Origin: Escherichia coli
GTDB lineage: Bacteria; Pseudomonadota; Gammaproteobacteria; Enterobacterales; Enterobacteriaceae
Reading direction: 5' to 3' (one strand)
NCBI RefSeq assembly: GCF_030013595.1
Contig: NZ_CP122768.1
DNA: 64,000 nucleotides
The notes under the pieces were generated by a model. It was not told the origin of the DNA, did not search any database, and saw only the letters and a program-made list of their open reading frames with translations. Position numbers and translations under genes: made by a program. Positions 16,518-45,061 of the stretch are shown here, piece after piece (within the stretch, counting starts at the first letter, position 1; the number at the start of each line of letters is the position of its first letter).

Positions 16518-16634
16518 ATGTCTGCACCTGCACTGCCTGATGTCAGAACAGTATTTTGATGAATTGCCAGGGTTACAATGGCACAAATACGGCACAGGAG
16601 GAAAATGTGGTGTAATTGAATGTGAGGTAACTAC

Positions 16635-16690
16635 TTGATTTAAATGGTGCCGATAAGAGGAGTCGAACCTCCGACCTTCGCATTACGAAT
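16635..16690 (-). repeat. Island-junction direct repeat: partial copy of the tRNA-Thr 3' end (about 47 nt) plus 9 bp of flank, not a functional tRNA
   Basis: 56 bp match to 44976-45031 with 2 mismatches; sequence diverges from thrW beyond the anticodon region. Confidence 0.85.
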
Positions 16691-16855
16691 TAGCGAGACC
16701 AGTGATTCAAGATGTTCACATCCGTTTCAGCATACAATAAAAAATATATAAAAATCAACAAAATAGACATAAATGCAGTATCAAGATGTTTCGCCTTGTT
16801 TCTGATGATATCATGTTAAATGTGTACCCCACTGTGTACCCAAAAGGCTGAAGAT

Positions 16856-18175
16856 ATGACTTTTACTATTACACAAGACAGACAATTGGCTTCATTGACC
16901 GTTACTAAAGAAGAAAAAGAAATCTTATTTGCTGTAAAATCTAAAGCTGGGGGAGGACTCTTTATACGCGTTCGTTATGGTAGCGACAATAAAAGCTGGA
17001 TTTATCGTTATCGAATAGCTCAAAAGCCAGCTAAATTAACACTAGGTAGTTACCCTGCCATGGGATTAGCTCAAGCTCGTAAAGCTCATGCGGATGCAAT
17101 TGAATTAGTAAGAAAAGGTATAGATCCTCGTCATATTAGAAAAAATGAAAAACAAAAAAATGAACAAATGATTATTTACTCTGAATTATGGAAAGATTGG
17201 ATAGAATTCAGAAAGACAAGTAAACCAATTAGCACCAGACCCCTTGCAGATTATGAAGGGACTTATCACCGCCACCTTGAAAAAGCATTAGGAAACCTTC
17301 GCATTGACGAACTTACCAAAAGCGTTATTTTTGAACATCTCAGTAATGTAAGAAAAACCAGTTCTGAAGCAGTTCGTAAAGGATTAATTATTCTAAATAT
17401 GACTCTTGATCATGCCAACTTACAGGGTATGCTTGAGCATAACCCAGCACGACTGCTCAAACCAGCAATGTTTGGTGCATCGATGAATAAACCTCGCGAG
17501 CGATGGCTTCCTGAGAATGAACTCCGGATGCTATGGAAGGCTTTGGATGATGCTACTGTTGGAGGAGGCTCCATTGCATCTGGTGGCTATGGAATTTCCT
17601 CTAGTGTGGTATTATCTCATTCTGTCGCAAATGCACTCCGTTTGATTATTTTCACAGGAGTGCGCCGCTCTGAAGCGGCACAAATGCGCTGGGATCAAAT
17701 TAATGGAGAGCGTTGGACCATACCAGCCACTAAAAATGGGAAAAGCCATATTGTTACTTTACATCCGTATATGCTTTCTTTAATAAAAACACAACGTGAA
17801 TTCACTGAAGGTGCATATGTTTTTGGTTCTACTAGCAAACCTGGCTTTCCCATCACAAATGACGCTCTGACTCGCGCGTTAGAAAGGGTTCGCTCTAAGT
17901 ATCTAGCCGAACTTACTCCATTTTCTCCTCATGATCTGCGTAGAAGTGTTGCGACTGGATGCGCTGAATACCTTGATGCTCCAGAGCGCCTAATAGAGTT
18001 ACTGTTAAATCATGTACCCAAAGACCGTTTAATACGAACATATCAAGTCGGACAACAAGCTGAAAAATTAAAAAATTTATTTATAGAATGGGGGAATTTT
18101 ATTATGAATAACGTCATTACTGTGCAGCAGAATGCTCCGGATAATGTTATTCATATAAAATTTGGGAACAGATGA
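16856..18175 (+). CDS. P4-type tyrosine integrase
   Basis: N-terminal arm-binding pattern GGGLFIRVRYGSDNKSWIYRYR...KLTLGSYP...LAQARK; C-terminal catalytic region with R...H..RR and Y; start set at second Met with weak SD (ORF track starts at 16820). Confidence 0.85.
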   Translation: MTFTITQDRQLASLTVTKEEKEILFAVKSKAGGGLFIRVRYGSDNKSWIYRYRIAQKPAKLTLGSYPAMGLAQARKAHADAIELVRKGIDPRHIRKNEKQKNEQMIIYSELWKDWIEFRKTSKPISTRPLADYEGTYHRHLEKALGNLRIDELTKSVIFEHLSNVRKTSSEAVRKGLIILNMTLDHANLQGMLEHNPARLLKPAMFGASMNKPRERWLPENELRMLWKALDDATVGGGSIASGGYGISSSVVLSHSVANALRLIIFTGVRRSEAAQMRWDQINGERWTIPATKNGKSHIVTLHPYMLSLIKTQREFTEGAYVFGSTSKPGFPITNDALTRALERVRSKYLAELTPFSPHDLRRSVATGCAEYLDAPERLIELLLNHVPKDRLIRTYQVGQQAEKLKNLFIEWGNFIMNNVITVQQNAPDNVIHIKFGNR

Positions 18176-23834: not shown

Positions 23835-26681
23835 TCAGAAAGTCACATTCAGCGTGGCCTGACCGTTATAACCTTCAGCGCTGCTGCCGCTGACGCTGTG
23901 GGCATAACCGGCCTGAACGCCCAGGGTGATATTTTCCCGGACACGGGCTTCCAGTCCGGCCTGCAGGTCCAGTGACGTGCCATTCTGGGATGGTGAGAAC
24001 GTCATGTTACTGCCGGCTGCGGCTGTACCCATGCTCATGTCACCCCGGGAGCTGAAGGTGCGGATAACAGAAGGCTGTACCCACCAGTTCACCGGCAGTT
24101 CACGCACACTGTGTTTTGCACTGTCGCGCAGGGTGTCACGGGATGAGGTGCCTTCACCAAAGGTCATATCGTTGTGGCTGCCCAGACGGAAACCGGCACG
24201 CACATGTTGTGCACTGCCATGCCCGAACTTCACATAACCGGCGTTATCCTGGCCGTCATCCAGGGAAAGTCCCTGCCAGGTATACTGCAGTTGTGGCTCC
24301 AGCATCAGGTTGTCAGTGATACTGAAGGGCAGACCGGTTTCCAGTGAGCCCAGCCAGCCCCAGCCCCGGGCGCGGAAGTCGTTATTGTCCGATGACGCTT
24401 TCATGCTGTGGCGGGTTCCCTGTGCCACAATGTCAGCCCACAGGCCGGAGGACGTGTGTGTCAGATTCAGGTATCCGCCCAGGCTGCCGGCATCATCCCG
24501 GACCGTGCCGGCACGGGAGCCGTCATCATCCTTAACATCAACGGAAGAATGGCCTGCAGCGCCATATACCCCCGTGGTCACAGACATACCGGCAACCTCT
24601 GTTCTCAGCAGGTCACCCTCCAGACGGACGAAGCCATAGCTGCCGCTGCTTTCCGGCGTGGCCCCACGGGCAATACCGCCGTTGTTATCGTGACCGAGAT
24701 GACCGCCCTGAATGCTGAGACGGACGCTGTTATTTTCACCGTTTACACCGGTCTGATGGCTGCGGGAGCCTGCCAGAATCCGGTCATAGTCCATTGCCTG
24801 TGTCAGCATGGAGGCATACAGGGGGACTTCAGCACGATAAGCATTTTCACTGCGCAGGTACCAGTCTTCATCGCTGTCACGGTTCAGGGTGTAGTTAAAG
24901 ACACCGGCCTGAAGCGGGCGACTCAGGGCAAACGCACCTTCTTCTGTGGTGGCACCATTCTGTGCATCCACAACCCGGATACCCTGTCCGGAGGTTGCCA
25001 CCCCGAGGTTACTGTTTCCGACATTTGTGAACGCAAGCCAGGTTTTGCCGGTTGCCTGACCACCATTAATCACCAGCTGGTCAGGGGCATTGCTGCCATC
25101 AAGGCGAACACGCATATTGATGGTGCCACCCTGACCGGTGAGGTTACTGGTGGTCAGTTTATGGAACGTTACCGGGGCGTCGCCTTTTGCAACAGCACGG
25201 CTCAGGACGGCATCCTGTGTCGTCTGATTATCAAAGCGAATCTCCCCTGCGTTAACAATATCGCCGGTACTGACCACATCACCATTCAGTACCATGCTGG
25301 CGCCTTTACTGAGCTGTGTTCTGCCACTCAGACTTCCCCCGGCAGCCAGCATCAGTGTCCCACGATGTCCGACAGTGGTGTTGCTGGCCTGTCCCCCGGC
25401 ATTAACCGTAAAGCTACCGCCATTTTCCAGCAGCAGGCCGCTGGCCTGACCGGATATACCATCAATACTGAACTTACCGCTGGCATTGGTCCCCTCAACA
25501 GTGGCACCACTGTCTGCAATCAGGGCACCACCGGATGTCATGGTGACACCTGTTGCCTTACCACCGGCAGACACTGCCAGGGTACCGCCGTCATCCACCC
25601 GTGTTTTCTGCGCTGAATGGCCCTCCAGTACATCCAGGCGACCGCCGGACTCCAGAACAAGGCCGTCAGCCTTACCGTTTTCCACCGTGAAATTGCCCAG
25701 ACGGTTGCTGCCGGTGACGGTTGCCGCCGTACTGGTGACCAGTGCGCCCCCCTGCTTCAGGGTGACATTCGTGGCTGTACCACCGGCGTTCACCTGCAGC
25801 TTGCCTTTCTGGTTAACGGTGGTGAAATCCGCCAGACCACCTTCCTTGATAATCTGCCAGCCGTCACTGTTTACAACAGTGCCAGACGCCGTACCGCCGT
25901 TGTGCACATACTGGTACCCCCCATTCAGCGTGGTATCCAGTGCGTGACCATGTACAGTCTGGTCGCCGCCGGCATAAACCACAGTGGTATTTACCGTTCC
26001 TTCAGCAGCCACAATCTGACGACCATTTTTATTGATGGTGGTGCGTACGGCATCTCCGTAGACGGTCTGCCCGGTATCACCATTTTCTGCATCCGGTCCC
26101 CCTTCCGCGCCGGTATTCACAACCGTGTCGGTTGCCACTGCGCCGGATTTGACGGCCTGCCAGCCCTTCTCATTAATGACAGTACCCGTTGCAATCCCGC
26201 CTTCATGTACCCACTGCTCACCGCCGTTCAGAGTGGTGTTCACTGCCTGCCCCTGAAGGCTCTGTCCGCCTCCGGCACTGATAACCGTGTCTGAAACGCT
26301 TCCTCCGGCATTCACTCTCTGAAGACCACCACCGGTGACAGTAGTGTTGTTGGCGATACCGCCATTTTGTATCCATTGTCCGCCGGTATTGGCCTCGTTA
26401 TCCGGCCCATACTCCAGACCGGTACTGATGGTCATTCCGTTGGCCGTACCGAAGACAATCTGGTTGTCATGATTTTCCAGTGTTCCGCCGCTCACGGTTT
26501 CTCCCGTCTGTACAACCGTGTCAGCAGCCAGTGCCGGGACTGATGTGACAGCAGCAAGAGACAGCGCAACCGCCACACCGGCGCGTTTTCCCCGTGAGCG
26601 GGCCAGTTCGGAGGTCACCACCAGGGTGCCCGTAATGTGATTCCATACCAGCCTGTAGCTGGTGTTCAGATGTCGTTTCAT
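23835..26681 (-). CDS. flu: Antigen 43 (Flu) self-associating autotransporter adhesin
   Basis: Extended autotransporter signal peptide [45 protein letters not shown]; repetitive beta-helix passenger; beta-barrel ending in aromatic F; 948 aa from this start (ORF track start 26756). Confidence 0.9.
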
Positions 26682-26894
26682 CAGCTTTTCCTTACAGAGG
26701 GTGAATAAAAAAGCCGGTACCCACAAATATGGGTACCGGCAGGTACAAAACAGCATGGTCAGATAAAGTGGTTTTTCCCGGACATAAATGCTTCTCCTCT
26801 CTCATCCGCCAGAGAAGTATCAGTCCGTTGTGTGCAATTCCGTTCTGCATGATGAAGAGATTCAGCTGCCTTTTCGCAGACCATTAACCACTAT

Positions 26895-28255: not shown

Positions 28256-30400
28256 ATGTATAATTGTGGTGAATCATATTCAGAATACGACATATCATTA
28301 TCTGACGATGAAAACTATAACGATGACTATTATCGTGAGCGCCCGTGCCCGGGAGAAGTTTTCGGCTATGATAATGATGTACCACGGTTTAGTAAGATTG
28401 CACGGTCTTATTTGCTCCACGTGGGTAGCCTTGACTGGACCAAGATAAATCCGGATATCTTTGGCTCCATGATTCAGGCAATTGCCGAAGATGAAGAGCG
28501 CGGAGAGCTGGGTATGCATTACACCAGCGTACCCAACATCTTAAAAGTTTTGAATCCACTATTTCTTGACGACCTGCGTGCACAGCTGGACGAGGCTGGT
28601 GACAATCCACGTATGTTGCTGAACCTGCGCAAACGCATTTCCCACATTCGTGTGTTCGACCCAGCGTGCGGTTCTGGGAACTTTTTGGTTATCGCGTATA
28701 AGGAAATGCGTGCCATTGAGGCCGAAATCAACAAGAGGCGCAGTGAGCCGGATCGTGCCTCGGATATTCCACTTACCAACTTTCGCGGGATTGAACTACG
28801 AGATTTCCCGGCAGAAATCGCCCGCCTTGCGCTTGTTATCGCTGAGTACCAATGTGATGTGCTGTACCGTGGGCTGCGGCTGGCCTTGGCTGAGCTTCTT
28901 CCTTTACGCAACGAAAATTGGATTACTTGTGGCAATGCACTGCGGCTCGACTGGTTAAGAATTTGTCCGCCAACGGGAACCAGTGTGAAATTACATGGTG
29001 ACGACTTGTTTGGATCACCGCTTGATCAGGCAGAGATTGACTTTGAAAATGAAGGAGGAGAGACATATATTTGTGGAAATCCTCCATACAAGGGTAGCCA
29101 AACCCAAACTGATGACCAAAAAAATGATCTAAAAGCCATATTCGAGAAACGCACAACTAATTGGAAGTCATTGGATTATGTTGCAGGTTGGTTTATGAAG
29201 GCTGTCGACTACGGTAGTCAAACTAACTCGTCTGCTGCGTTCGTCTCAACTAATTCCATTTGTCAAGGTAGACAGGTCGAAACCCTTTGGTCGTTGATTT
29301 TTGCAGCCAAGCATGAAATATCCTTTGCTTATACGTCCTTCAAATGGGCAAATCTTGCTAGCCACAATGCGGGAGTGAGTGTCATTGTTGTGGGAATTTC
29401 TAATCATGTTAAGGGCCCCCGGAAAATATTTTCCACAACTGAGGATTTGGGGACCATCATAAAAGAAGTAGACAACATCAATGCGTATCTTGTCGCGGGT
29501 AAAAGCACAATTGTTGCACAGCGAAGTTTTCCTTTATCCGAAGTAAGTGTAATGGATTTTGGTTCAATGGCGAACGATGGTGGTGGCCTTCTTTTTGACA
29601 GTTCAGAATCAAGTCGTGCAGTTAATGATTATGGTGCTGATATTTGTTATTTTCGAAAGGCTTGGGGAGCTAAGGAGTTTATTTCTGGAACTCCTAGAGC
29701 TTGCCTGTGGTTAAATAAAGACAGTGCTAAAAAAGCAATTCTGAACTCTTGGATTTCAGACCGAATTGAGATCACACGTAAGGCCAGAGCAAATAGTCCT
29801 CGGGCAGCGACAAAAAAACTAGCAGATATTGCTTACAGATTTGGTGAAGTGAGGCAAGACGGCAGCGAGCGAATCATTATTGTTCCCAGTGTCAGTTCTG
29901 AACGTAGGGAGTATCTTCCATGTGGTTATCTCGATGTTGGTTCAATCGTTATCGCTCCGAATCTTGCTTTCTATGATTCCCCGCTTTGGAATATGGCGCT
30001 TATTGCTTCTAGGTTGCATTTGGTATGGGTGGCGACAGTCTGCGGGCGTATCAAAACTGACTATCGCTACTCTAATACCCTTGGCTGGAATACTTTCCCT
30101 GTCCCACCACTCACTGAGAAAAACAAGGCCGACCTTACGCGTTGCGCAGAGGATATCCTACTGGCGCGGGAACACCACTTCCCTGCGACTATTGCGGATT
30201 TGTATGATCCCGCGAACATGCCCCCTGACCTGCGTGCTGCCCATGAACGAAACGACGAAGTGCTGGAACGCATCTATATAGGGCGACGATTCAAGAACGA
30301 CACTGAGCGGCTGGAAAAGTTGTTCGACCTCTACACGAAAATGATTGCTTCGACTGCACCGGTCAAAGGTAAGAAGCGCAAAGCAGGAAATAACGAATGA
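28256..30400 (+). CDS. N6-adenine DNA methyltransferase, gamma-class, MmeI/PglX-like, without nuclease domain
   Basis: 714 aa; strong SD aaaggaga 8 nt before ATG; SAM motif I VFDPACGSGNFLV at about aa 135 and catalytic motif IV CGNPPYKG at about aa 277; upstream HYTS helical region; about 430 aa C-terminal presumed target-recognition region. Confidence 0.8.
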   Translation: MYNCGESYSEYDISLSDDENYNDDYYRERPCPGEVFGYDNDVPRFSKIARSYLLHVGSLDWTKINPDIFGSMIQAIAEDEERGELGMHYTSVPNILKVLNPLFLDDLRAQLDEAGDNPRMLLNLRKRISHIRVFDPACGSGNFLVIAYKEMRAIEAEINKRRSEPDRASDIPLTNFRGIELRDFPAEIARLALVIAEYQCDVLYRGLRLALAELLPLRNENWITCGNALRLDWLRICPPTGTSVKLHGDDLFGSPLDQAEIDFENEGGETYICGNPPYKGSQTQTDDQKNDLKAIFEKRTTNWKSLDYVAGWFMKAVDYGSQTNSSAAFVSTNSICQGRQVETLWSLIFAAKHEISFAYTSFKWANLASHNAGVSVIVVGISNHVKGPRKIFSTTEDLGTIIKEVDNINAYLVAGKSTIVAQRSFPLSEVSVMDFGSMANDGGGLLFDSSESSRAVNDYGADICYFRKAWGAKEFISGTPRACLWLNKDSAKKAILNSWISDRIEITRKARANSPRAATKKLADIAYRFGEVRQDGSERIIIVPSVSSERREYLPCGYLDVGSIVIAPNLAFYDSPLWNMALIASRLHLVWVATVCGRIKTDYRYSNTLGWNTFPVPPLTEKNKADLTRCAEDILLAREHHFPATIADLYDPANMPPDLRAAHERNDEVLERIYIGRRFKNDTERLEKLFDLYTKMIASTAPVKGKKRKAGNNE

Positions 30401-32442
30401 ACAATAAAATCAAGAATGTACCTTCCGTTTCCGTTACTTATGCACGTAATGGCGCATCAACCAAAGCTAATGTGCTTGGGATGCGTCCTATGCAGGAGAG
30501 AGCTTATGAAAAGCGCGGCGAGCAGTACTTGCTTATCAAATCACCACCGGCATCAGGTAAAAGCCGCGCACTGATGTTCATAGCACTCGACAAACTCGAA
30601 AACCAAGGGATTAAACAGGCAATCATCGTTGTGCCGGAAAAATCTATCGGCGCGAGTTTCAACGATGAACCGCTATCGCAGTTTGGATTCTGGGCTGATT
30701 GGCATGTCGAACCTAAGTGGAACCTATGCAACGCGCCCGGTAACGACAACGGGGGCAAGGTAAGATCTTTTGGCTCTTTTCTTGAAAGTAGCGACAAGGT
30801 GCTTGTTTGCACACACGCAACCTTTCGCTTCGCGGTCGATGCCTATGGCGTAGAAGCGTTTGACGATCGCCTGATCGCCGTCGATGAATTCCACCATGTG
30901 TCAGCTAACCCGGATAACAAGCTTGGTCAGCATCTGGGGCAGTTCATCGCGCGTGATAAGACACACATCGTTGCCATGACCGGCTCCTACTTCCGTGGTG
31001 ATGCGGAGGCCGTTTTGGCTCCTCAGGATGAGTCCAGGTTCGATACCGTCACCTATACCTACTACGAACAACTCAACGGTTACGAATACCTCAAGCAACT
31101 CGATATCGGCTACTTCTTTTACAGTGGCTCCTACGTCGATGACATCCTTAATGTCCTCGATCCTGACAAAAAGACCATTATCCATATACCCAACGTCAAT
31201 TCGCGCGAGAGCACGAAGGATAAAATCAAGGAAGTGGAGCATATTCTTAGCGAGCTTGGCGATTGGCAAGGTGCGGATCCTGCGACTGGTTTCCAGCTAG
31301 TCAAATGCCTCGATGGCCGAATGTTGCGTATAGCTGATCTGGTGGACCCAACTAGTCAAGGCAAGATTCAGGAAAGCCTTCGTGCTGCAGAAATGAAGAC
31401 AGACCGTGACTATGTAGACATCATTATTGCACTTGGTATGGCGAAGGAAGGTTTTGACTGGATTTGGTGCGAACATGCGCTGACCGTTGGCTACCGTGCC
31501 AGCCTGACTGAGATCGTGCAGATTATCGGTCGCGCTACTCGCGACGCGCCGGGTAAAAACCGCGCAAGGTTTACTAACCTGATCGCCGAGCCGGATGCTG
31601 TTGAGGGGGCTGTCACCGAGGCAGTCAACGATACCTTGAAAGCCATCGCGGCAAGCCTGCTGATGGAGCAAGTATTAGCTCCGCGCTTCGAGTTCAAGCC
31701 TAAGAACCCAGAAAGTGGTCCGGCCCCAGGCTTTGATTATGGTGATGGTGGATATGACCCGGATAGCTGTAATTTTGGTGTTAATGAGCAGACAGGGACG
31801 TATCAAATCGAGATTAAGGGACTTGCCGAGCCCAGGAGCAAAGAGGCGGCACGCATCTGCCAGGAAGATTTAAACGAAGTGATCGCGGCCTTTGTGCAGG
31901 ATAAGCCCGCCATCGAACGAGGCCTGTTCGATGAAGAGCTGATTCCTGAAGAGTTAACTCAGGTTCGTATGGGTAAGATCATCAAAGAAAAGTATCCTGA
32001 GCTTGATGCTGAAGATCAGGAGGCTGTACGTCAGCATGCTATCGCCGCCCTTAACCTCACGCAGCAGGCCAAGCGTCTTGCCACCGACGATAACGATGGG
32101 ACGCTCAATACTGCTCTTATTGACGGAGTGCGTCGCTTTGCGATGGATGTGCGCGATTTAGACATAGACCTTATCGACCGCATCAATCCCTTTGGTGAAG
32201 CCTACGCTATCCTTGCTAAGACGATGAGTGAAGACAGTTTGAAGCAGGTCGCGGCGGCAATCTCGGCCAAGCGTACCTCGATCACACCTGAAGATGCCAA
32301 GGTGATCGCCAAGCGTGCCGCTGAATTCAAACGTGAACGTGGCCGCCTCCCATCGTTAACTTCGCCGGATGCTTGGGAAAAACACCTTGCTGAAGGTGCA
32401 GCTGCGTTTATGCGTTTTAGGGCGGAGGGACGTTATGAATAA
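30397..32442 (+). CDS. SF2 (DEAD/DEAH, ResIII-like) helicase with about 300 aa uncharacterised C-terminal extension
   Basis: 681 aa; ATGA overlap with MTase stop; Walker A SPPASGKSRA, DExH box IAVDEFHHV, motif III MTGSYF, motif VI QIIGRATRD. Confidence 0.8.
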   Translation: MNNKIKNVPSVSVTYARNGASTKANVLGMRPMQERAYEKRGEQYLLIKSPPASGKSRALMFIALDKLENQGIKQAIIVVPEKSIGASFNDEPLSQFGFWADWHVEPKWNLCNAPGNDNGGKVRSFGSFLESSDKVLVCTHATFRFAVDAYGVEAFDDRLIAVDEFHHVSANPDNKLGQHLGQFIARDKTHIVAMTGSYFRGDAEAVLAPQDESRFDTVTYTYYEQLNGYEYLKQLDIGYFFYSGSYVDDILNVLDPDKKTIIHIPNVNSRESTKDKIKEVEHILSELGDWQGADPATGFQLVKCLDGRMLRIADLVDPTSQGKIQESLRAAEMKTDRDYVDIIIALGMAKEGFDWIWCEHALTVGYRASLTEIVQIIGRATRDAPGKNRARFTNLIAEPDAVEGAVTEAVNDTLKAIAASLLMEQVLAPRFEFKPKNPESGPAPGFDYGDGGYDPDSCNFGVNEQTGTYQIEIKGLAEPRSKEAARICQEDLNEVIAAFVQDKPAIERGLFDEELIPEELTQVRMGKIIKEKYPELDAEDQEAVRQHAIAALNLTQQAKRLATDDNDGTLNTALIDGVRRFAMDVRDLDIDLIDRINPFGEAYAILAKTMSEDSLKQVAAAISAKRTSITPEDAKVIAKRAAEFKRERGRLPSLTSPDAWEKHLAEGAAAFMRFRAEGRYE

Positions 32443-33613
32443 TTCTGATTTAGACGATTTGGCAGCAGAACTTGCCGAGTTTGCACCACCTGAGAAGAAA
32501 AAAGGACGTCCAGCCAGCGAGGAACGCATCATAGCCGGTTTTGAAGAGATCCAGCGCTTTACTGAGCAACATGGGCGTGTCCCGCAACATGGCGAAGAGC
32601 GTGATATCTTCGAGCGTCTCTATGCAGTGCGGCTCGACCGCCTACGCAGTCTCCCAGACTGCCGTGCCTTGCTAGAGCCACTGGATCATCAGGGCTTATT
32701 AGCTGGAGGGGGCGATGTAGCGGAGTCTGCGGACGAAATTATCGATATCGATAACTTGGCTGCCGAACTGGCGGATGTTTCCAGCGAGGACGATATCACG
32801 GTCTTGCGTCATGTTCGTGCTAGCACCGAAAAGCGCGTTGTACAAGGAGTTGCGGATCGCAAGCCGTGCGAGGATTTTGATGCGTTCAAACCACTATTTG
32901 AGCAGGTACGCAATGATCTAAGTTCAGGGTTAAGAGTGACCCGACCTTTTGGGCAGTATGCAACGATTGAAGTGGGTCATTGGTTTATCCTGGATGGTCA
33001 AACGGCTTATGTGTCTGAGGAAGGTGAAGAGTTCGATTCTCCACAGGGGAAGAAAGATGCTCGGCTGCGTGTCATTTATTCGAATGGTACAGAAAGCAAC
33101 CTACTTCGGCTGTCATTGGTTCGTGCTTTGTATAAAGACGAAACAGCGCGTCGAATTACCGATCCAGACATGGGGCCTTTATTCAGCGATGCTCTAGAAG
33201 AGAGCGATCTAGAAAGTGGCACTATTTATGTGTTGCGTTCGCTATCTGATAACCCTTATGTAGCTGAACATCGTGATGTCATTCACAAGATTGGAGTGAC
33301 TGGCGGCAAAGTAGAGGCGCGTATTGCCAATGCGGAACACGATTCCACCTATCTGTTAGCGAAAGTCGAGGTGGTAGCTTCATACAAGCTTGCAGGCATC
33401 AACAGCACCCGGATGGAAAACCTGTTTCACAGGTTGTTTGCACCCGCAAGGCTTAACATTACCATTAACGACCGTTTCGGCCATCCAGTGCAGCCCGAGG
33501 AATGGTTTCTCGTTCCGTTATTCGTTATCGATGAGGCTGTTGCACGTATTAAGGATGGTAGCATCATTGGGTATGTTTATGACCCCATGTCTGCGAAACT
33601 GGTGAAGGCATAG
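32435..33613 (+). CDS. Protein with C-terminal T5orf172 / GIY-YIG-superfamily domain
   Basis: 392 aa; start ATG 32435 overlaps the helicase stop by 8 nt and has GGAGGG SD; C-terminus GTIYVLRS...HKIGVTGGKVEARI...ENLFHRLF...EEWFLVP matches the T5orf172/GIY-YIG pattern; N-terminus has two acidic repeats DLDDLAAELAEF and DIDNLAAELADV. Confidence 0.7.
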   Translation: MNNSDLDDLAAELAEFAPPEKKKGRPASEERIIAGFEEIQRFTEQHGRVPQHGEERDIFERLYAVRLDRLRSLPDCRALLEPLDHQGLLAGGGDVAESADEIIDIDNLAAELADVSSEDDITVLRHVRASTEKRVVQGVADRKPCEDFDAFKPLFEQVRNDLSSGLRVTRPFGQYATIEVGHWFILDGQTAYVSEEGEEFDSPQGKKDARLRVIYSNGTESNLLRLSLVRALYKDETARRITDPDMGPLFSDALEESDLESGTIYVLRSLSDNPYVAEHRDVIHKIGVTGGKVEARIANAEHDSTYLLAKVEVVASYKLAGINSTRMENLFHRLFAPARLNITINDRFGHPVQPEEWFLVPLFVIDEAVARIKDGSIIGYVYDPMSAKLVKA

Positions 33614-34426: not shown

Positions 34427-36191
34427 ATATCACGAACGGTGCAATAGTGGTTCTTCCGCAACTTGGGTGGAAGAAAATGGATGAAACTTTCTGGTGAACA
34501 AGGATCTAAGCTGTTTTAAGTTATGGGCAACGCAATGCACTCTCTTAAGACACTTCTACAGTTACCTTGCGGATGGCGATGCAGTCGACAAATTATTAGC
34601 TCTGACGGTATCACCCTCCATCTCCACGGAAAACGCAAAACAGCACAATGTCCTGAATGCTCTAAGCGTAGCGACTCTGTTCATAGTTCTCGTCGGCGCC
34701 GGATACAGCATCTACCCTGCTCCGGGCAGACGCTATGGCTTGTATTTTCCGTCCGCCACTGGTACTGCCGTAACCCGGCTTGTTCACGTAAAATTTTTGC
34801 CGAGTCGCTTGCTCCCTTCGCCGGTTCACACCAGCAGTCTTCACAGGCGTTACAAAATTTACAACGTCAACTGGGATTAATAGCTGGAGGTGAGGCTGGA
34901 AAACGGGCTGCAACGGCAGCGGGTCTCCGTTGCAGTGCTGATACTCTTCTTCGCAGGGTTATCAATACCCCGGAGACGAAACAGTCAGGCGCGCCTCATG
35001 TCGGTATTGATGAGTGGGCGTGGCATCGGGGCCACTGCTGCGGTATGTTAATAGTCAATCTTGATACTCACCGTCCCCTCGTCCTGCTTCCCGGCCGTGA
35101 TCAGCGTACGCTGGCGACCTGGTTCAGAAAATATCCGGAAATACAGGTTGTCTCGCGTGATCGCAGTGGAGTCTATGCGACAGCAGCACGTGAAGGTGCA
35201 CCTCAGGCCAGACAGGTGGCCGATCGATGGCACCTGCTAAAAAATATTGGTGATGAGCCTGAACGAATGATGTACAGACATATACCTCTGATACGTCTTG
35301 TTGCCAGTGAGTTGTCACCAAAGAAATCACCTGAGCCAGAACTGTCTGTGCCTGCAGCATCGCTCCGTCGTCCGGAACGCCTTAAACAGCAAACCCGCAA
35401 AAAACGGCATCAGCGTTGGACAGAGGTTATGGCCCTGCATAACAAGGGATGTAGTTTCAGGGAAATATCCCGTATTACAGGCCTGTCGCGTGTGACAGTC
35501 AGTCGCTGAGTACGTTCAGGAACATTCCCTGAAATGTCAACCCGACCTCCAAAGCGAGGGCTTTTGGACCCATGGAGGGAGTGGTTAAAAGAGCAACGAG
35601 AAAGTGGGAATTATAACGCCAGCCGGATAATGGCGGGAAATGGTGGTCCGGGGGTTTACAGGCAGTGAAACCATTGTCAGGGATACTGTTGCCAAATGGC
35701 GTAAAGGCTGGATCCCACCGGTTACTACTGCCGTCAGACTTCCTTCAGTGTCCCGGGTAAGGCGCTGGTTGATGCCCTGGAGAATAATCAGGGATGAAGA
35801 AAATTATGCTTCCCGATTTATTAGTCTGATGTGTGAAAAAGAACCGGAGCTGAAAATAGCGCAGCAACTGGTACTCGAGTTCTACCGTATTCTGAAAACC
35901 CAAAATAAATCACAGCTTAGCAGCTGGTTCACTCGAGTCCACGAAAGCGGTTCAGCAGAACTTCGGCGCGTGGCTGCGGGGATGGAAGCTGATGCTGCGG
36001 CTATATGTGAGGCAATCAGCAGTCGCTGGAGTAATGGTGTTGTCGAAGGTCATGTAAATCGCCTGAAGATGTTGAAACGCCAGATGTATGGTCGAGCCGG
36101 ATTTGAACTGCTCAGGCAGAGGGTCATGAGTCCACTGGCATGAAAATCTCCACCCAAGTTGCGGAAGAACCACTTTTCATCCGTCGTTGAC
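34427..36191 (+). mobile_element. ISL3-family insertion sequence nested in IS66 tnpA
   Basis: Perfect 23 bp terminal inverted repeats ggttcttccgcaacttgggtgga (34449-34471) and tccacccaagttgcggaagaacc (36149-36171), extending imperfectly outward; removing 34427-36196 restores the IS66 tnpA frame. Confidence 0.75.
34523..36143 (+). pseudogene. ISL3-family transposase, disrupted by an in-frame stop and a frameshift
   Basis: Two ORFs (34523-35509 and 35640-36143); N-terminal zinc-finger-like HLHGKRKTAQCPECS and C-terminal WSNGVVEGHVNRLKMLKRQMYGRAGFELLRQRV typical of ISL3 transposases; TGA at 35507-35509 followed by a frame change. Confidence 0.75.
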
Positions 36192-36498: not shown

Positions 36499-36840
36499 AT
36501 GATAAATCTTCCCGCAGGCACAAAAATCTGGCTGGTTGCCGGTATCACCGATATGCGCAACGGCTTCAATGGTCTCGCCGCAAAGGTGCAGACAGCGTTG
36601 AAAGATGACCCGATGTCCGGCCACGTCTTCATCTTCCGGGGCCGCAGCGGCAGTCAGGTCAAACTGCTGTGGTCCACCGGCGACGGACTGTGCCTGCTGA
36701 CCAAAAGGCTGGAGCGTGGCCGCTTCGCCTGGCCGTCGACCCGCGATGGCAAAGTGTTCCTGACGCCGGCGCAGCTGGCGATGCTGATGGAAGGTATCGA
36801 CTGGCGACAGCCAAAGCGGTTACTGACGTCCCTGACATGT
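36499..36840 (+). CDS. tnpB: IS66-family TnpB (orf2)
   Basis: MINLPAGTKIWLVAGITDMRNGFNGLAAKVQTALKDDPMSGHVFIFRGRSGSQVKLLW...GIDWRQPKR matches IS66 orf2; ATGA overlap with preceding tnpA frame; 3' end merges into the truncation junction. Confidence 0.7.
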
Positions 36841-37684
36841 TGTAGCCCAGGTCTTCTTCGTTGATAAAGTTCACATCCAGAGGATGGATACTTCCTGTAG
36901 CCCGTAATATCGTCGGTTCAATATCCTGCACATTCATCGGGATCACCGATGCAAGAAAAGCCCATTGATCAGAATAAGGCTGGAAATTAATATCAACAAA
37001 AACGCTTCCCCCCGATGCACGCGGTCTTTTTTGCAGAGGTAACGCGATAAGATTACCAAATCCTCCTTTTGGCATAGTATCCTGATTAGGAAATAATCGG
37101 TCATAAGAACTCAATTGCAGCTGTCGGGTCCGGCTGCACGTATAGCTAATAATAGCAGTCCCCAGACGGCGAGCTTCGCGGGCCGAAACTCGTGAAGCAA
37201 AAAATATCCAGACATGCGCTCCCTGACGTGAGCGGGATATTTCCAGCGCAGCAGGTACACTCAGCTCATCACAGGCTCGCATGAACGCGGATGCATCCTT
37301 CTGCCATTCAGCTTTATCAAAATCAACAGCCAGAAAATAACAGGAATCATCTTCCAGCAACGGATATAACCCGGCAGTATGCGTGCCTGCCAGATGCTGG
37401 TAGATGACAAGATCAGATACAGGGAGTAACTGACGGTGCGTACAGTCCCCGCATTTTATCCGGGGTTTACCGCATATTCTCGCCTGCCATTCGTTAGCGC
37501 AGGCAGGAGAGTACCCTGATTTGCCGCTGGTTTTACTTTCCCAACGAAGGGCCCATATATCATCACGCCCACGAAACAACCGACGAAATAATGCAACCTT
37601 CTCGTCGGTGGATAATACGGAAACGCGCTGCACAGGGCTCGGCGGTTTACGTCGCCATTCCAAGTAATGAGACCAGACGGGCAT
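36841..37684 (-). pseudogene. Archaeo-eukaryotic primase (AEP / Prim-Pol)-like gene, 3'-truncated by the IS66 remnant
   Basis: N-terminal LFRRLFRGRDDIWALRWE, DxD motif FLAVDFDK, GAHVWIFF and GGFGNLIALP motifs; the last third of the listed 341 aa ORF is antisense IS66 tnpB sequence. Confidence 0.6.
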
Positions 37685-39423: not shown

Positions 39424-40874
39424 TCAGAGGTCAAAGTTAGGTGCGACACACAACGTTTTTCCCTCAATAACCGGTACAACTCTGTTTTGTTCATACAGTA
39501 AATCCAGTAACCAGTTGATTTTATCCTTTTTCCGGAAACGGTTCGGACCACGCTGTAAAATGTCATTTTTTTTCATACAGAGGATCCCCTTCTCAATGCA
39601 ATAGCTTTTTATCCAGTTGAAAAGTTCAAGCTCCTCTGGAATGAGTCGCACAGGTACGGTCAGGGCAGGGTTGTCAAAAGTTAACGGATTAGACAACCGC
39701 ACATACTCATTACCGTACCATATTGCTAATTCTCTCGCCATTTCTGCAATGTAAGGGGAAATCTCCCCCTCCTCACCGCTCGAATGGTAAATAAGTCCTG
39801 CCAGTCTTGCCATATACTCTGCATTTTTAGCAGCATATTCCCGGCAATGTCTTAAAGGCCCCAATCCCCCCAGCTTCGATTCCACATCATTGTAATAATC
39901 CGTCCAGATTCTGGCAGCCTGAGGAGAAAAGTGAAGGCAACGTCGTTCACCACTCATCGCCAGACTTTCATCAATAAGCTCATTGATCCTCTGTTCAAAC
40001 AAATCCTGATACTGTGATGAATAATTATCTCCGGTTATTATCCTTGTCCCCTGCGTTGATGTTGGTTGACACATCAAAAACCTTGCATGATGTCCTGACG
40101 TTTTCACAAGTTCTTTTTTTCGCGTACAAAAACCTTTGTGGTAAACATCAGGCTGAATCATCGCCGACATCGTCAGTCTTGGCTCCTTCAAATTAATTCC
40201 GGGAGATGATTTCCTGTCGATGAAAAGAGAACCTCCATCCCACAAAGTGTTAATAATTCCCAGTTTACTCATGGCCCGGCTGTCAAAAATTCCCCCCCTT
40301 CACTGGATACAAGAGCAAAAGAACGATTGCTATCGGAGTAATATTTTAACATTCCCTCTATCGTTGTCTCATTAAAAATTGTTCGACGTATCTGCGGCGG
40401 AACAGGAGACTTATTCAGATGCGTTTCAAGCTCTGATTCTGTTGCCTTGTAATCTTTACCGGCACGAATCTCTTTATGAAATTTTGATTCCAGCGCTTTT
40501 TGTTTTTGCTCCCATATTTCCTTTTCTGTGCTGTAATTCTCAACCAGTTTCGCGTATTCTTCCGCCAGGGCTTCATCCCTGAGATAAAATGCTTTCATAA
40601 ACACTTTATCCACGGTCGTTTTCCTTTCACCAGAATCAGCCAGAATCAGAGAGTAAAGATTAACAGGCCCACGTAAATTTCCAGGTCTGCACACGTCAAT
40701 CTGATTCTGACAGGCAATTGAGATCGCTGTTAATGCGGATGTCGCCACCATAGCCAAAGGTGCCTGTGTATTTTTTTGAGTTTCAATTATTGCATTTCTC
40801 ACCAGCGGTGGTAGTGCATATATCGGATAAGGATTTTCTGGTGCAAGTAAGCACATAAAAGCCTCTCTTTTCAT
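39424..40874 (-). pseudogene. YfjI-like DUF3987 protein gene split by a frameshift in a C7/G7 homopolymer
   Basis: Two ORFs (40874-40269, 201 aa; 40272-39424, 282 aa) in adjacent frames; both frames are open across the C7 run at 40292-40298 and one extra C would fuse them into about 483 aa. Confidence 0.6.
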
Positions 40875-41437: not shown

Positions 41438-41686
41438 TCATCTGGTCTGTATCCAGCAGAGAAGGTCACTTAACAACCATCCGCAAGATTTCTTTCCGAT
41501 AGACTTACGTGGTGGAAATGTTCCCTCCCGTTCAAGTTTCCACGCTTGTGTACGAGAAATTGACGTGATCTCATATCGTTCCTTTTCACGTACCAGTCTG
41601 TCGCATTCAATCCCATAAGCTTTCAAAATGACCAGACGCTGTTCATCTGTTAATGGAAGCCACATACTACCCTCCTGATATATCAA
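41438..41686 (-). CDS. alpA: AlpA-family phage/island transcriptional regulator (HTH)
   Basis: C-terminal YEITSISRTQAWKLEREGTFPPRKSIGKKSCGWLLSDLLCWI matches the AlpA HTH pattern; true start may be an internal Met. Confidence 0.7.
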   Translation of the reverse strand: MIYQEGSMWLPLTDEQRLVILKAYGIECDRLVREKERYEITSISRTQAWKLEREGTFPPRKSIGKKSCGWLLSDLLCWIQTR

Positions 41687-44078: not shown

Positions 44079-44675
44079 TTATGCGGCTTTTCCATTAACA
44101 GATTCGGCCACAAGAACAACACCGTGTTTGTTTCGATCAGGATGTTCACTCCAGATTTCTGATTCAGGAATACTTTCCCCATCATAGCAGATCCGATCAC
44201 CATCAAACGGATAATACCGTGCGGAATCTGTATCTAAGATAAACACCTTAAGATTCGTTGAACGACGCGCTATATGCTGCCAGAGGGCTTTACCTCCTTC
44301 ATATTGCTCGTTATCACTTAATAGTATAACGCCTGCTTTTGTGGCTATTGTTTCATAAACAAACGTAGCAAGGCTAACATCACGTACAGCACCATCGACA
44401 ACAATCCCTTCAATCTGAGCAACGTCCTGTTCTTCCCAGAATTTCCGGACAAACACCCCTTCAAGCTGTGAACGACGCTGAAGCTCCAGAGTGGCAACAA
44501 CCTTATGGCGAATATCACCATCAATAACAGAAGGTGCAGCTTCGATTACCGCAGCGAACGGAGTCTTTGGATCCCAGATGATCTGGTAAAGCACACCCTG
44601 AATAGTTACTCCATCCAGTATCGAAAAACGACGAGCTACAGTAGCAGGGGAGTAAGACATTGGAATGACAGCCAT
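44079..44675 (-). CDS. Hypothetical protein, 198 aa
   Basis: ORF adjacent to thrW inside the island; no recognised motif. Confidence 0.5.
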   Translation of the reverse strand: MAVIPMSYSPATVARRFSILDGVTIQGVLYQIIWDPKTPFAAVIEAAPSVIDGDIRHKVVATLELQRRSQLEGVFVRKFWEEQDVAQIEGIVVDGAVRDVSLATFVYETIATKAGVILLSDNEQYEGGKALWQHIARRSTNLKVFILDTDSARYYPFDGDRICYDGESIPESEIWSEHPDRNKHGVVLVAESVNGKAA

Positions 44676-44975
44676 TTTATGGCCTAAAATTTGAAAACAT
44701 CAGTATCAATACTGACCTCATCAGTCTGAGCATATATTGATAAAGTTTTTATGTTTACACTCAATAAATACCTTACCAAACAACTAATAGCGATGTCTAC
44801 ATTGCCATTCGACATGCTTACAATTTTTGTCAACAAGAAAGTGAATTTATATCAACGGTAAGAAGTAAACACGAGGACACCAAAACCAAATGTACACACT
44901 TTTGTGCTTTGTGTCCCCTGTGTGTACCCAAATGACAAACTGCAAGAAAATCTAGGCACACACTTATCTAACTTA

Positions 44976-45031
44976 TTGATTTAAATGGTGCCGATAATAG
45001 GAGTCGAACCTACGACCTTCGCATTACGAAT
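44976..45031 (-). repeat. Island-junction direct repeat overlapping the 3' part of thrW
   Basis: 56 bp match to 16635-16690 with 2 mismatches. Confidence 0.85.
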
Positions 45032-45061
45032 GCGCTGCTCTACCAACTGAGCTATATCGGC
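44986..45061 (-). tRNA. thrW: tRNA-Thr (anticodon CGT)
   Basis: Reverse complement reads GCCGATATAGCTCAGTTGGTAGAGCAGCGCATTCGTAATGCGAAGGTCGTAGGTTCGACTCCTATTATCGGCACCA; 76 nt with CCA end, located next to proA. Confidence 0.95.

Follow-up and report, generated by a model that had tools for sequence, protein, structure and literature searches.

The four short repeat units lying near the two ends of a genomic island at thrW in Escherichia coli are best explained as arm-type sites for the island's own tyrosine integrase (Int), a heterobivalent enzyme that would use them to build its intasome. On the strength of sequence comparisons, we place the probability of this reading at roughly 80%. We also consider it probable, at a lower level of confidence, that the pair of units closest to the integrase gene (int) doubles as an operator for autorepression of int. 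Throughout, "the window" denotes the whole 64-kb stretch of E. coli chromosome that was analyzed, and coordinates refer to it unless another locus is named.

Boundaries of the island at thrW

The window contains thrW, encoding tRNA-Thr(CGU), at 44986-45061 on the minus strand, beside proA. Two direct repeats, matched to one another by alignment and both read on the minus strand, mark the ends of the island. The left copy (16628-16690, 63 bp) is the displaced 3' half of the native thrW and extends from the anticodon loop to ~10 nt beyond the 3' end. This pseudo-tRNA, comparable to K-12 ptwF, includes the core-type region, and its anticodon loop occupies 16683-16689. The right copy (44969-45031) is the thrW 3' half supplied by the island plus ~17 nt downstream, and it lies within the intact tRNA gene. 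Fusing position 16690 to 45032 gave a predicted empty site of 460 nt, which was run against complete E. coli genomes. Many of these matched with 100.0% identity across all 460 nt, and at least 80% of the site was covered in 948 E. coli genomes. The matches at 100% identity define the island as 16691-45031 (28 kb), recombined at the thrW anticodon loop, and these boundaries place the repeat units just inside both ends, flanking the crossover. This thrW island family was found in ~200 of 5,426 complete E. coli genomes, as well as in several other genera.

The two thrW halves differ in the T stem, which reads GGAGG/CCTCT in the native half (16646-16690, and likewise in the empty sites) and GTAGG/CCTAT in the island-supplied half (44987-45031). 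As these two differences are compensatory, integration swaps the T arm of the tRNA for a variant that still pairs.

The cargo of the island includes an Ag43/AIDA-type autotransporter adhesin of 973 aa (23835-26756) and a probable defence module (28256-33613), an operon-like run encoding an MmeI-type methyltransferase/TRD protein, a DEAD/ResIII helicase and a T5orf172/MUG113 protein. Signs of decay are also present, including a DUF3987 (YfjI-like) gene split into two overlapping ORFs (39424-40874) and an ISL3 transposase fragment (34523-35509). A synthetic attP representing the excised or tandem junction yielded no full-length match in complete E. coli genomes, and an exact gapped pattern for the same junction yielded none in viral contigs and none in metagenome contigs. 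Given the split gene, the transposase fragment and the absent excised junction, the island may no longer move.

Repeat units in both attachment arms and the integrase of the island

An original prediction, drawn from the letters of the window, had described a 9-mer near both island ends in a single orientation, and all four units were confirmed on the plus strand at the positions it gave. Measured from the centre of the anticodon loop, the units occupy -117 to -98 and +135 to +155, which places them in both att arms and outside the core. In the int-proximal arm, TGTGTACCC is found at 16821-16829 (candidate site P'1, at +135) and again at 16833-16841 (candidate site P'2), 12 bp after P'1 from start to start and 15 nt before the int ATG. 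In the thrW-proximal arm, the variant TGTGTCCCC is found at 44910-44918 (candidate site P1, at -117 to -109), followed 11 bp later, again from start to start, by TGTGTACCC at 44921-44929 (candidate site P2), 57 nt from the thrW 3' end. As pairs, the left units precede the int ATG by 15-35 nt, and the right units are 57-76 nt away from the thrW 3' end. TGTGTACCC has no similarity to the core-type region, the thrW anticodon stem-loop. Weaker inverted look-alikes of the 9-mer, GTGTGTAC and TGTGTGCCT, flank the right pair on the minus strand at 44892-44899 and 44954-44962; as they have no counterpart in other groups of islands, they were not taken as extra sites.

The integrase gene (16856-18175, plus strand) encodes a 439-aa protein in which an N-terminal arm DNA-binding domain is followed by central and catalytic domains, matching the Pfam domains PF13356 (Arm-DNA-bind_3, E = 1e-18), PF22022 and PF00589. 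Its N-domain has homologues in the PDB (3JU0 and 3JTZ), and in the AlphaFold model four strands at residues 22-66 are followed by a helix, with pLDDT of 83-88. The catalytic R-K-H-R-H-Y residues are invariant in the alignment (R270/271, K293, H359, R362, H386 and Y396). With its Arm-DNA-bind_3 domain, these catalytic residues and a tRNA target, the protein belongs to the P4-like (DUF4102) class of integrases. All relatives examined adjoin either a gene for tRNA-Thr(CGU) or a pseudo-copy of the 3' half of such a gene. A search of a phage collection returned no close relative of the integrase, the best match being 25% identical.

Taken at face value, this arrangement points to the following mechanism. 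The island would have entered thrW by recombination at the anticodon loop, and upon excision its ends would join as an attP of ~275 bp. In this attP, P1 and P2 would lie ~98-117 bp to one side of the crossover and P'1 and P'2 135-155 bp to the other side. All four arm sites would share one orientation, and an IHF-like bend site would separate the core from P'. Int would grip the arm sites with its N-terminal beta-sheet domain and the thrW core with its C-terminal domains, forming an intasome that would serve integration and, together with an AlpA-like protein, excision.

Islands that keep the same repeat word

Relatives collected through a protein search formed a graded series of integrase identity. 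A contig scan gave 7 loci only, and the statistics therefore rest on ~12 independent arms. The relatives that share the word of the window (group 1) have integrases 73-78% identical to that of the window, come from Pectobacterium, Dickeya, Citrobacter and Brenneria, and lie beside a thrW pseudo-copy in the same divergent geometry. Pectobacterium, Citrobacter and Brenneria have kept paired WGTGTACCC units, at -36/-24 relative to the ATG and with a 12-bp period, in the midst of spacers and flanks that change; the words next to int are TGTGTACCC/AGTGTACCC, and in Brenneria TGAGTCCCC/AGTGTACCC. In an alignment of six arms from five genera, GTGTACC of the second unit is invariant, and variation occurs in the 3-nt gap and over much of the arm. 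The SNPs that distinguish six E. coli arm alleles (95-100% identical) lie in the AT-rich spacer or in the gap that separates the units; none touches a unit.

The opposite end of the Brenneria island carries TGTGTACCC/AGTGTACCC 56-76 nt from the thrW 3' end, with TGTGTACCC at the position equivalent to that of the variant site P1 (44910) in the window. Apart from this repeat pair, the thrW-proximal arm of Brenneria is unalignable with the E. coli arm. The Dickeya relative retains the second unit only, exactly one 12-bp unit having been lost next to int, and a pair is thus not strictly required. In Dickeya oryzae (locus L015, 9960-10000), the one unit of 12 bp missing relative to Pectobacterium fits slippage between units. 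The possibility raised at the outset that the repeats might be missing from the ends of homologous islands was not borne out, as they were found to be present in relatives instead.

Replacement of the word and its match to the integrase arm domain

Integrases that are 68-70% identical to that of the window (group 2; E. coli E308, Pectobacterium araliae and Salmonella) are accompanied by AAGTACGCC/AAGTACGCG at the same place, and in the complete E. coli E308 island this pair is found again 58-77 nt from thrW. Aeromonas integrases (59-61% identical) are accompanied by GGGGTAYG-type pairs, AGAGGGGTATG/AGAGGGGTACG beside int and GGAGGGGTACAG/GGAGGGGTATGA at the other end, 55-77 nt from thrW, with both ends shown for the islands of loci L013 and L014. 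K-12 CP4-6, whose integrase IntF is 25% identical, carries TTTACTTACACCAGCWGTTACATTA at both ends at the same distances. The right-end pair thus lies 54-78 nt from thrW in four integrase groups that use four different words. A second GGGGTAC/GGGGTAT pair with a 12-bp period was observed in Aeromonas bivalvium (locus L018, 1489-1510) on the opposite strand, ~8.5 kb from the island, and may be an arm of another related element.

Between group 1, with its word TGTGTACCC, and group 2, with its word AAGTACGC, sharp differences occur only in the arm module and the word. For the beta-sheet of the arm domain (residues 31-66), identity is 54% between the two groups and 84-94% within groups; for the core-binding and catalytic domains it is 75-79% between the two groups, similar to the values within group 1. 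As judged from these alignments, the divergence between group 1 and group 2 is confined to the arm domain. In total, three repeat words pair with three arm-domain groups.

This pairing bears directly on which protein the repeats serve. The island also carries a gene for an AlpA-family small DNA-binding protein (41438-41686, minus strand; Pfam PF05930, E = 2e-13), a candidate recombination directionality factor (RDF), and the repeats might be sites of this excisionase and not of Int, given that excision factors recognize direct repeats in att arms and, in the case of KplE1, repress int as well. We regard this as unlikely. AlpA-like proteins from islands with one repeat word are 29-41% identical and no closer to each other than to those from islands with another word, whereas the switch in word coincides with a switch confined to the beta-sheet of the Int arm domain. 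The repeats occupy both arms, whereas excision-factor sites typically occupy one. A better excision-factor candidate is a GTTTC-like motif in the int-proximal arm, laid out in two blocks like the TorI sites GTTCG, GTCCG and GATCG of KplE1 attL (PMC2951348). The cargo genes are entirely different between islands, and only Int and the AlpA-like protein were seen recurring. As the beta-sheet tracks the word, the AlpA-like proteins do not, and the cargo differs, the arm domain of Int is the only consistent partner of the repeats. Between the two roles first proposed for the 9-mer, this evidence goes against recombination directionality, and the arm domain, the positions on both arms, the conservation across genera and the covariation of word and beta-sheet together favour arm-type sites for the integrase.

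The constancy of the right pair also weighs on a reading that we consider quite improbable, in which the left pair serves int expression alone, as an operator or promoter element bound by a host or island regulator, and the right pair is the dead relic of an old duplication. The left pair does lie between a -10-like hexamer and the start codon, as such an element might. The right pair, however, holds its distance from thrW through four integrase groups and four words, including Brenneria with its unalignable arm, and it has no gene start nearby, the nearest being at 44675 on the other strand. The recurrence across islands of Int and the AlpA-like protein alone, amid cargo that otherwise differs, likewise speaks against this reading.

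Frequency of the word and the start codon of int

Three exact copies of TGTGTACCC were seen in the window against 0.21 expected, and none of 100 dinucleotide shuffles of the window contained 3 copies. The count that had been suggested as a check on enrichment thus showed the word to be clustered and not common. When up to one mismatch to TGTGTACCC was allowed, the window gave 5 matches against 9.6 expected, and 4 of the 5 are the four sites. With the one-mismatch matches below expectation and nearly all of them at the sites, the signal is one of clustering, not abundance. A weight matrix built from units outside E. coli ranked the three exact copies 1-3 and the TGTGTCCCC variant 6th among ~128,000 window positions. 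The best off-site matrix matches, at 37253 (minus strand) and 37508 (plus strand), lie inside an AEP-TOTE primase gene (36659-37684) and are probably due to chance. Across ~370 kb of fetched loci, each exact TGTGTACCC belongs to an att arm of some related element. In the literature, the 9-mer turned up only in unrelated primer and sequence matches.

A chance origin, or neutral low-complexity repetition with no function, might be entertained since the 9-mer is short and TGTGT-rich runs lie nearby (44892-44899 and 44954, minus strand), but it is very improbable in light of the shuffles, the top ranks given to the sites by a matrix from foreign homologues, and the conservation of the sites in five genera with parallel replacement in other groups.

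The left pair had also been described as overlapping the start region of the integrase, a point that requires correction. The actual ATG is at 16856 (RefSeq), downstream of the pair, and only an in-frame ATG at 16820, 36 nt further upstream, is overlapped, namely by the first 9-mer. That the left pair is coding, as part of an N-terminal extension of Int from this ATG (MCTPLCTQKAED...), is highly improbable, as the in-frame ATG and the 451-aa product called by database cluster P0001 are set against the RefSeq start at 16856, a protein alignment that begins at that methionine, 6 of 10 homologous loci with no in-frame start upstream of the int ATG (the other 4 have candidates at other offsets), and the non-coding occurrence of the same word at the opposite end of the island.

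Motifs of the int-proximal arm and a putative promoter

The pseudo-tRNA is divergent from int, and the intergenic arm between them measures 165 nt. In addition to the candidate Int sites, this arm alone contains a second, (A)TGTTTC-like repeat family in two blocks, TCAAGATGTTCAcatccGTTTCA at 16706-16731 and TCAAGATGTTTCgccttGTTTCT at 16780-16803, both on the plus strand. The second block contains a 10-nt exact repeat (TCAAGATGTT) of 16707-16716 in the first. The first block may be bound by an accessory protein or an RDF. In groups 1 and 2, most homologues have GTTTC-like words near -142/-132 relative to the int ATG, and the words are weaker in the Aeromonas group; GTTTC at -68/-58 is conserved, and the second block has no SNPs among the six E. 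coli alleles. These blocks are probably sites of the AlpA-like factor, and the motif could in principle be the true Int arm site instead.

At the AT-rich centre of the arm, an IHF-like site, AATCAACAAAATA, lies at 16753-16765 on the plus strand and matches WATCAANNNNTTR with one mismatch. An IHF-like word recurs as a consensus match at -103 +/- 2 in nearly all homologues, and its AAAATCA is invariant among group-1 arms. This word may mark a bend in the arm.

Under the preferred reading, in which Int binds the P' pair, the surroundings of that pair suggest a further role. A -10-like hexamer, TATCAT, preceded by TGa, lies at 16809-16814 on the plus strand, 6 nt upstream of P'1, and is a putative element of the int promoter. 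A TAnnnT hexamer (TATCAT, TATACT, TACAAT, TATTAT or TAACAT) is present at ~-46 to -52 in 9 of the 11 loci checked. A strict sigma-70 scan found no full promoter, and strict sigma-70 and terminator scans of both arms found nothing upstream of int. Read from the core, the arm has a common layout in all groups: the core end at ~-165, GTTTC-like words at ~-142/-132, the IHF-like word at -103, GTTTC-like words at ~-68/-58, the TAnnnT hexamer at ~-47, two group-specific units, ~15 nt, and the ATG. As the P' pair is situated between the conserved -10-like hexamer and the int start codon, bound Int probably represses its own gene.

Comparison with known integration systems

The island shares with KplE1 (CPS-53) the architecture of Arm-DNA-bind_3, Phage_int_M and Phage_integrase domains, and the same order of elements, with a tRNA core, an excision-factor-like repeat block, a spacer, a second block, a promoter (putative in the window), arm repeats and the int ATG. 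In KplE1 attL, the arm-type P' sites of IntS overlap the -10 of the intS promoter, TorI sites overlap this promoter too, and both IntS and TorI repress intS (Panis et al. 2010, PMC2951348); the corresponding autorepression by Int is here a prediction. Repression of Pint by Int in trans has been shown for IntF, IntS, IntC and IntL, and PintF, which shares the thrW locus and the divergent geometry, is repressed ~23-fold by IntF (PMC2951348). The two systems differ in several respects. IntS is 24% identical to the integrase of the window, and its target is argW where that of the window is thrW. The P' sites of IntS have a common TAAA motif, unlike the GTAC of the window. In KplE1, int lies beside the intact tRNA gene in the same orientation, whereas int of the window lies beside a displaced pseudo-tRNA and is divergent from it. 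As TorI gave no match to the Pfam AlpA model at E <= 0.001, the parallel between the accessory proteins is one of analogy, and no homology is claimed.

CP4-6 (K-12 ptwF-intF) occupies the same chromosomal site with the same divergent geometry and crossover region. It carries a ~25-bp repeat of two units with a 12-bp period, once just before the likely int start and once at 54-78 nt from the thrW 3' end. Unlike the island of the window, it has the distant integrase IntF (25% identical), an unrelated word (CTTACAC/GTTACAT) and other cargo. The annotated start of K-12 intF (locus L002, 36597) puts the CP4-6 arm repeat inside the coding sequence, at +17 to +41 (36557-36597). The true start seems instead to be 36522, 75 nt downstream, where an in-frame ATG has a GGAG box.

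In phage lambda, Int uses its N-terminal beta-sheet domain to bind repeats on both arms (P1, P2 and P'1-P'3), IHF bends the DNA that links the arms to the core, and neighbouring P' sites lie about one helical turn apart. The integrase of the window would follow the same heterobivalent logic, with an N-terminal beta-sheet domain for the arm repeats. It differs from that of lambda in belonging to another Pfam arm-domain family, in having a predicted attP with 2 + 2 sites in a single orientation as opposed to 2 + 3, and in having its core within the anticodon loop of a tRNA. Promoter overlap is absent from lambda because int is transcribed towards att there. With the P4-family islands (P4, CP4-57 and the PAIs of E. 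coli 536), the island shares a DUF4102-type arm domain, a tRNA target and an AlpA-type accessory gene, but in most of those islands int lies beside the intact tRNA gene, unlike in the window. IHF influences int promoters in P4-family tRNA islands (PMC7286903).

Tandem islands and arm specificity

Tandem arrays mixing types of island were found at thrW in four fetched loci. Tandem occupancy is common at thrW, as in loci L008 (9672-9760), L016 (~330-420), L004 (2640-2830) and L010 (8400-9990). In E. coli E308 (NZ_CP030281), the right arm of an island of the window type abuts a second island with a different integrase, on a Citrobacter contig an IntF-type arm repeat abuts a group-1 island, and at other loci a prophage integrase or a second P4-like integrase is adjacent.

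The occurrence of mixed tandem arrays suggests that the arm code keeps co-resident islands independent. More tentatively, the beta-sheet of the arm domain may act with the arm repeats as a swappable "private address", such that several unrelated islands could share the one thrW site in tandem and each would still be excised by its own integrase.

Arm-type sites and their overlap with an int promoter are already known, and no new mechanism is revealed here. What is new is the site map for this thrW integrase family and a clean paired switch of the repeat word and the arm-domain beta-sheet. The result provides a precise attachment-site map for thrW islands that carry adhesins, restriction systems and anti-phage systems. 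If the private-address reading is correct, the switch would be a natural change of specificity and a ready template for reprogramming arm recognition. As word and beta-sheet change together in an otherwise constant integrase with a constant tRNA target, they offer a clean natural experiment on the evolution of arm specificity, and this paired switch may explain how tandem islands remain independent at one tRNA hotspot.
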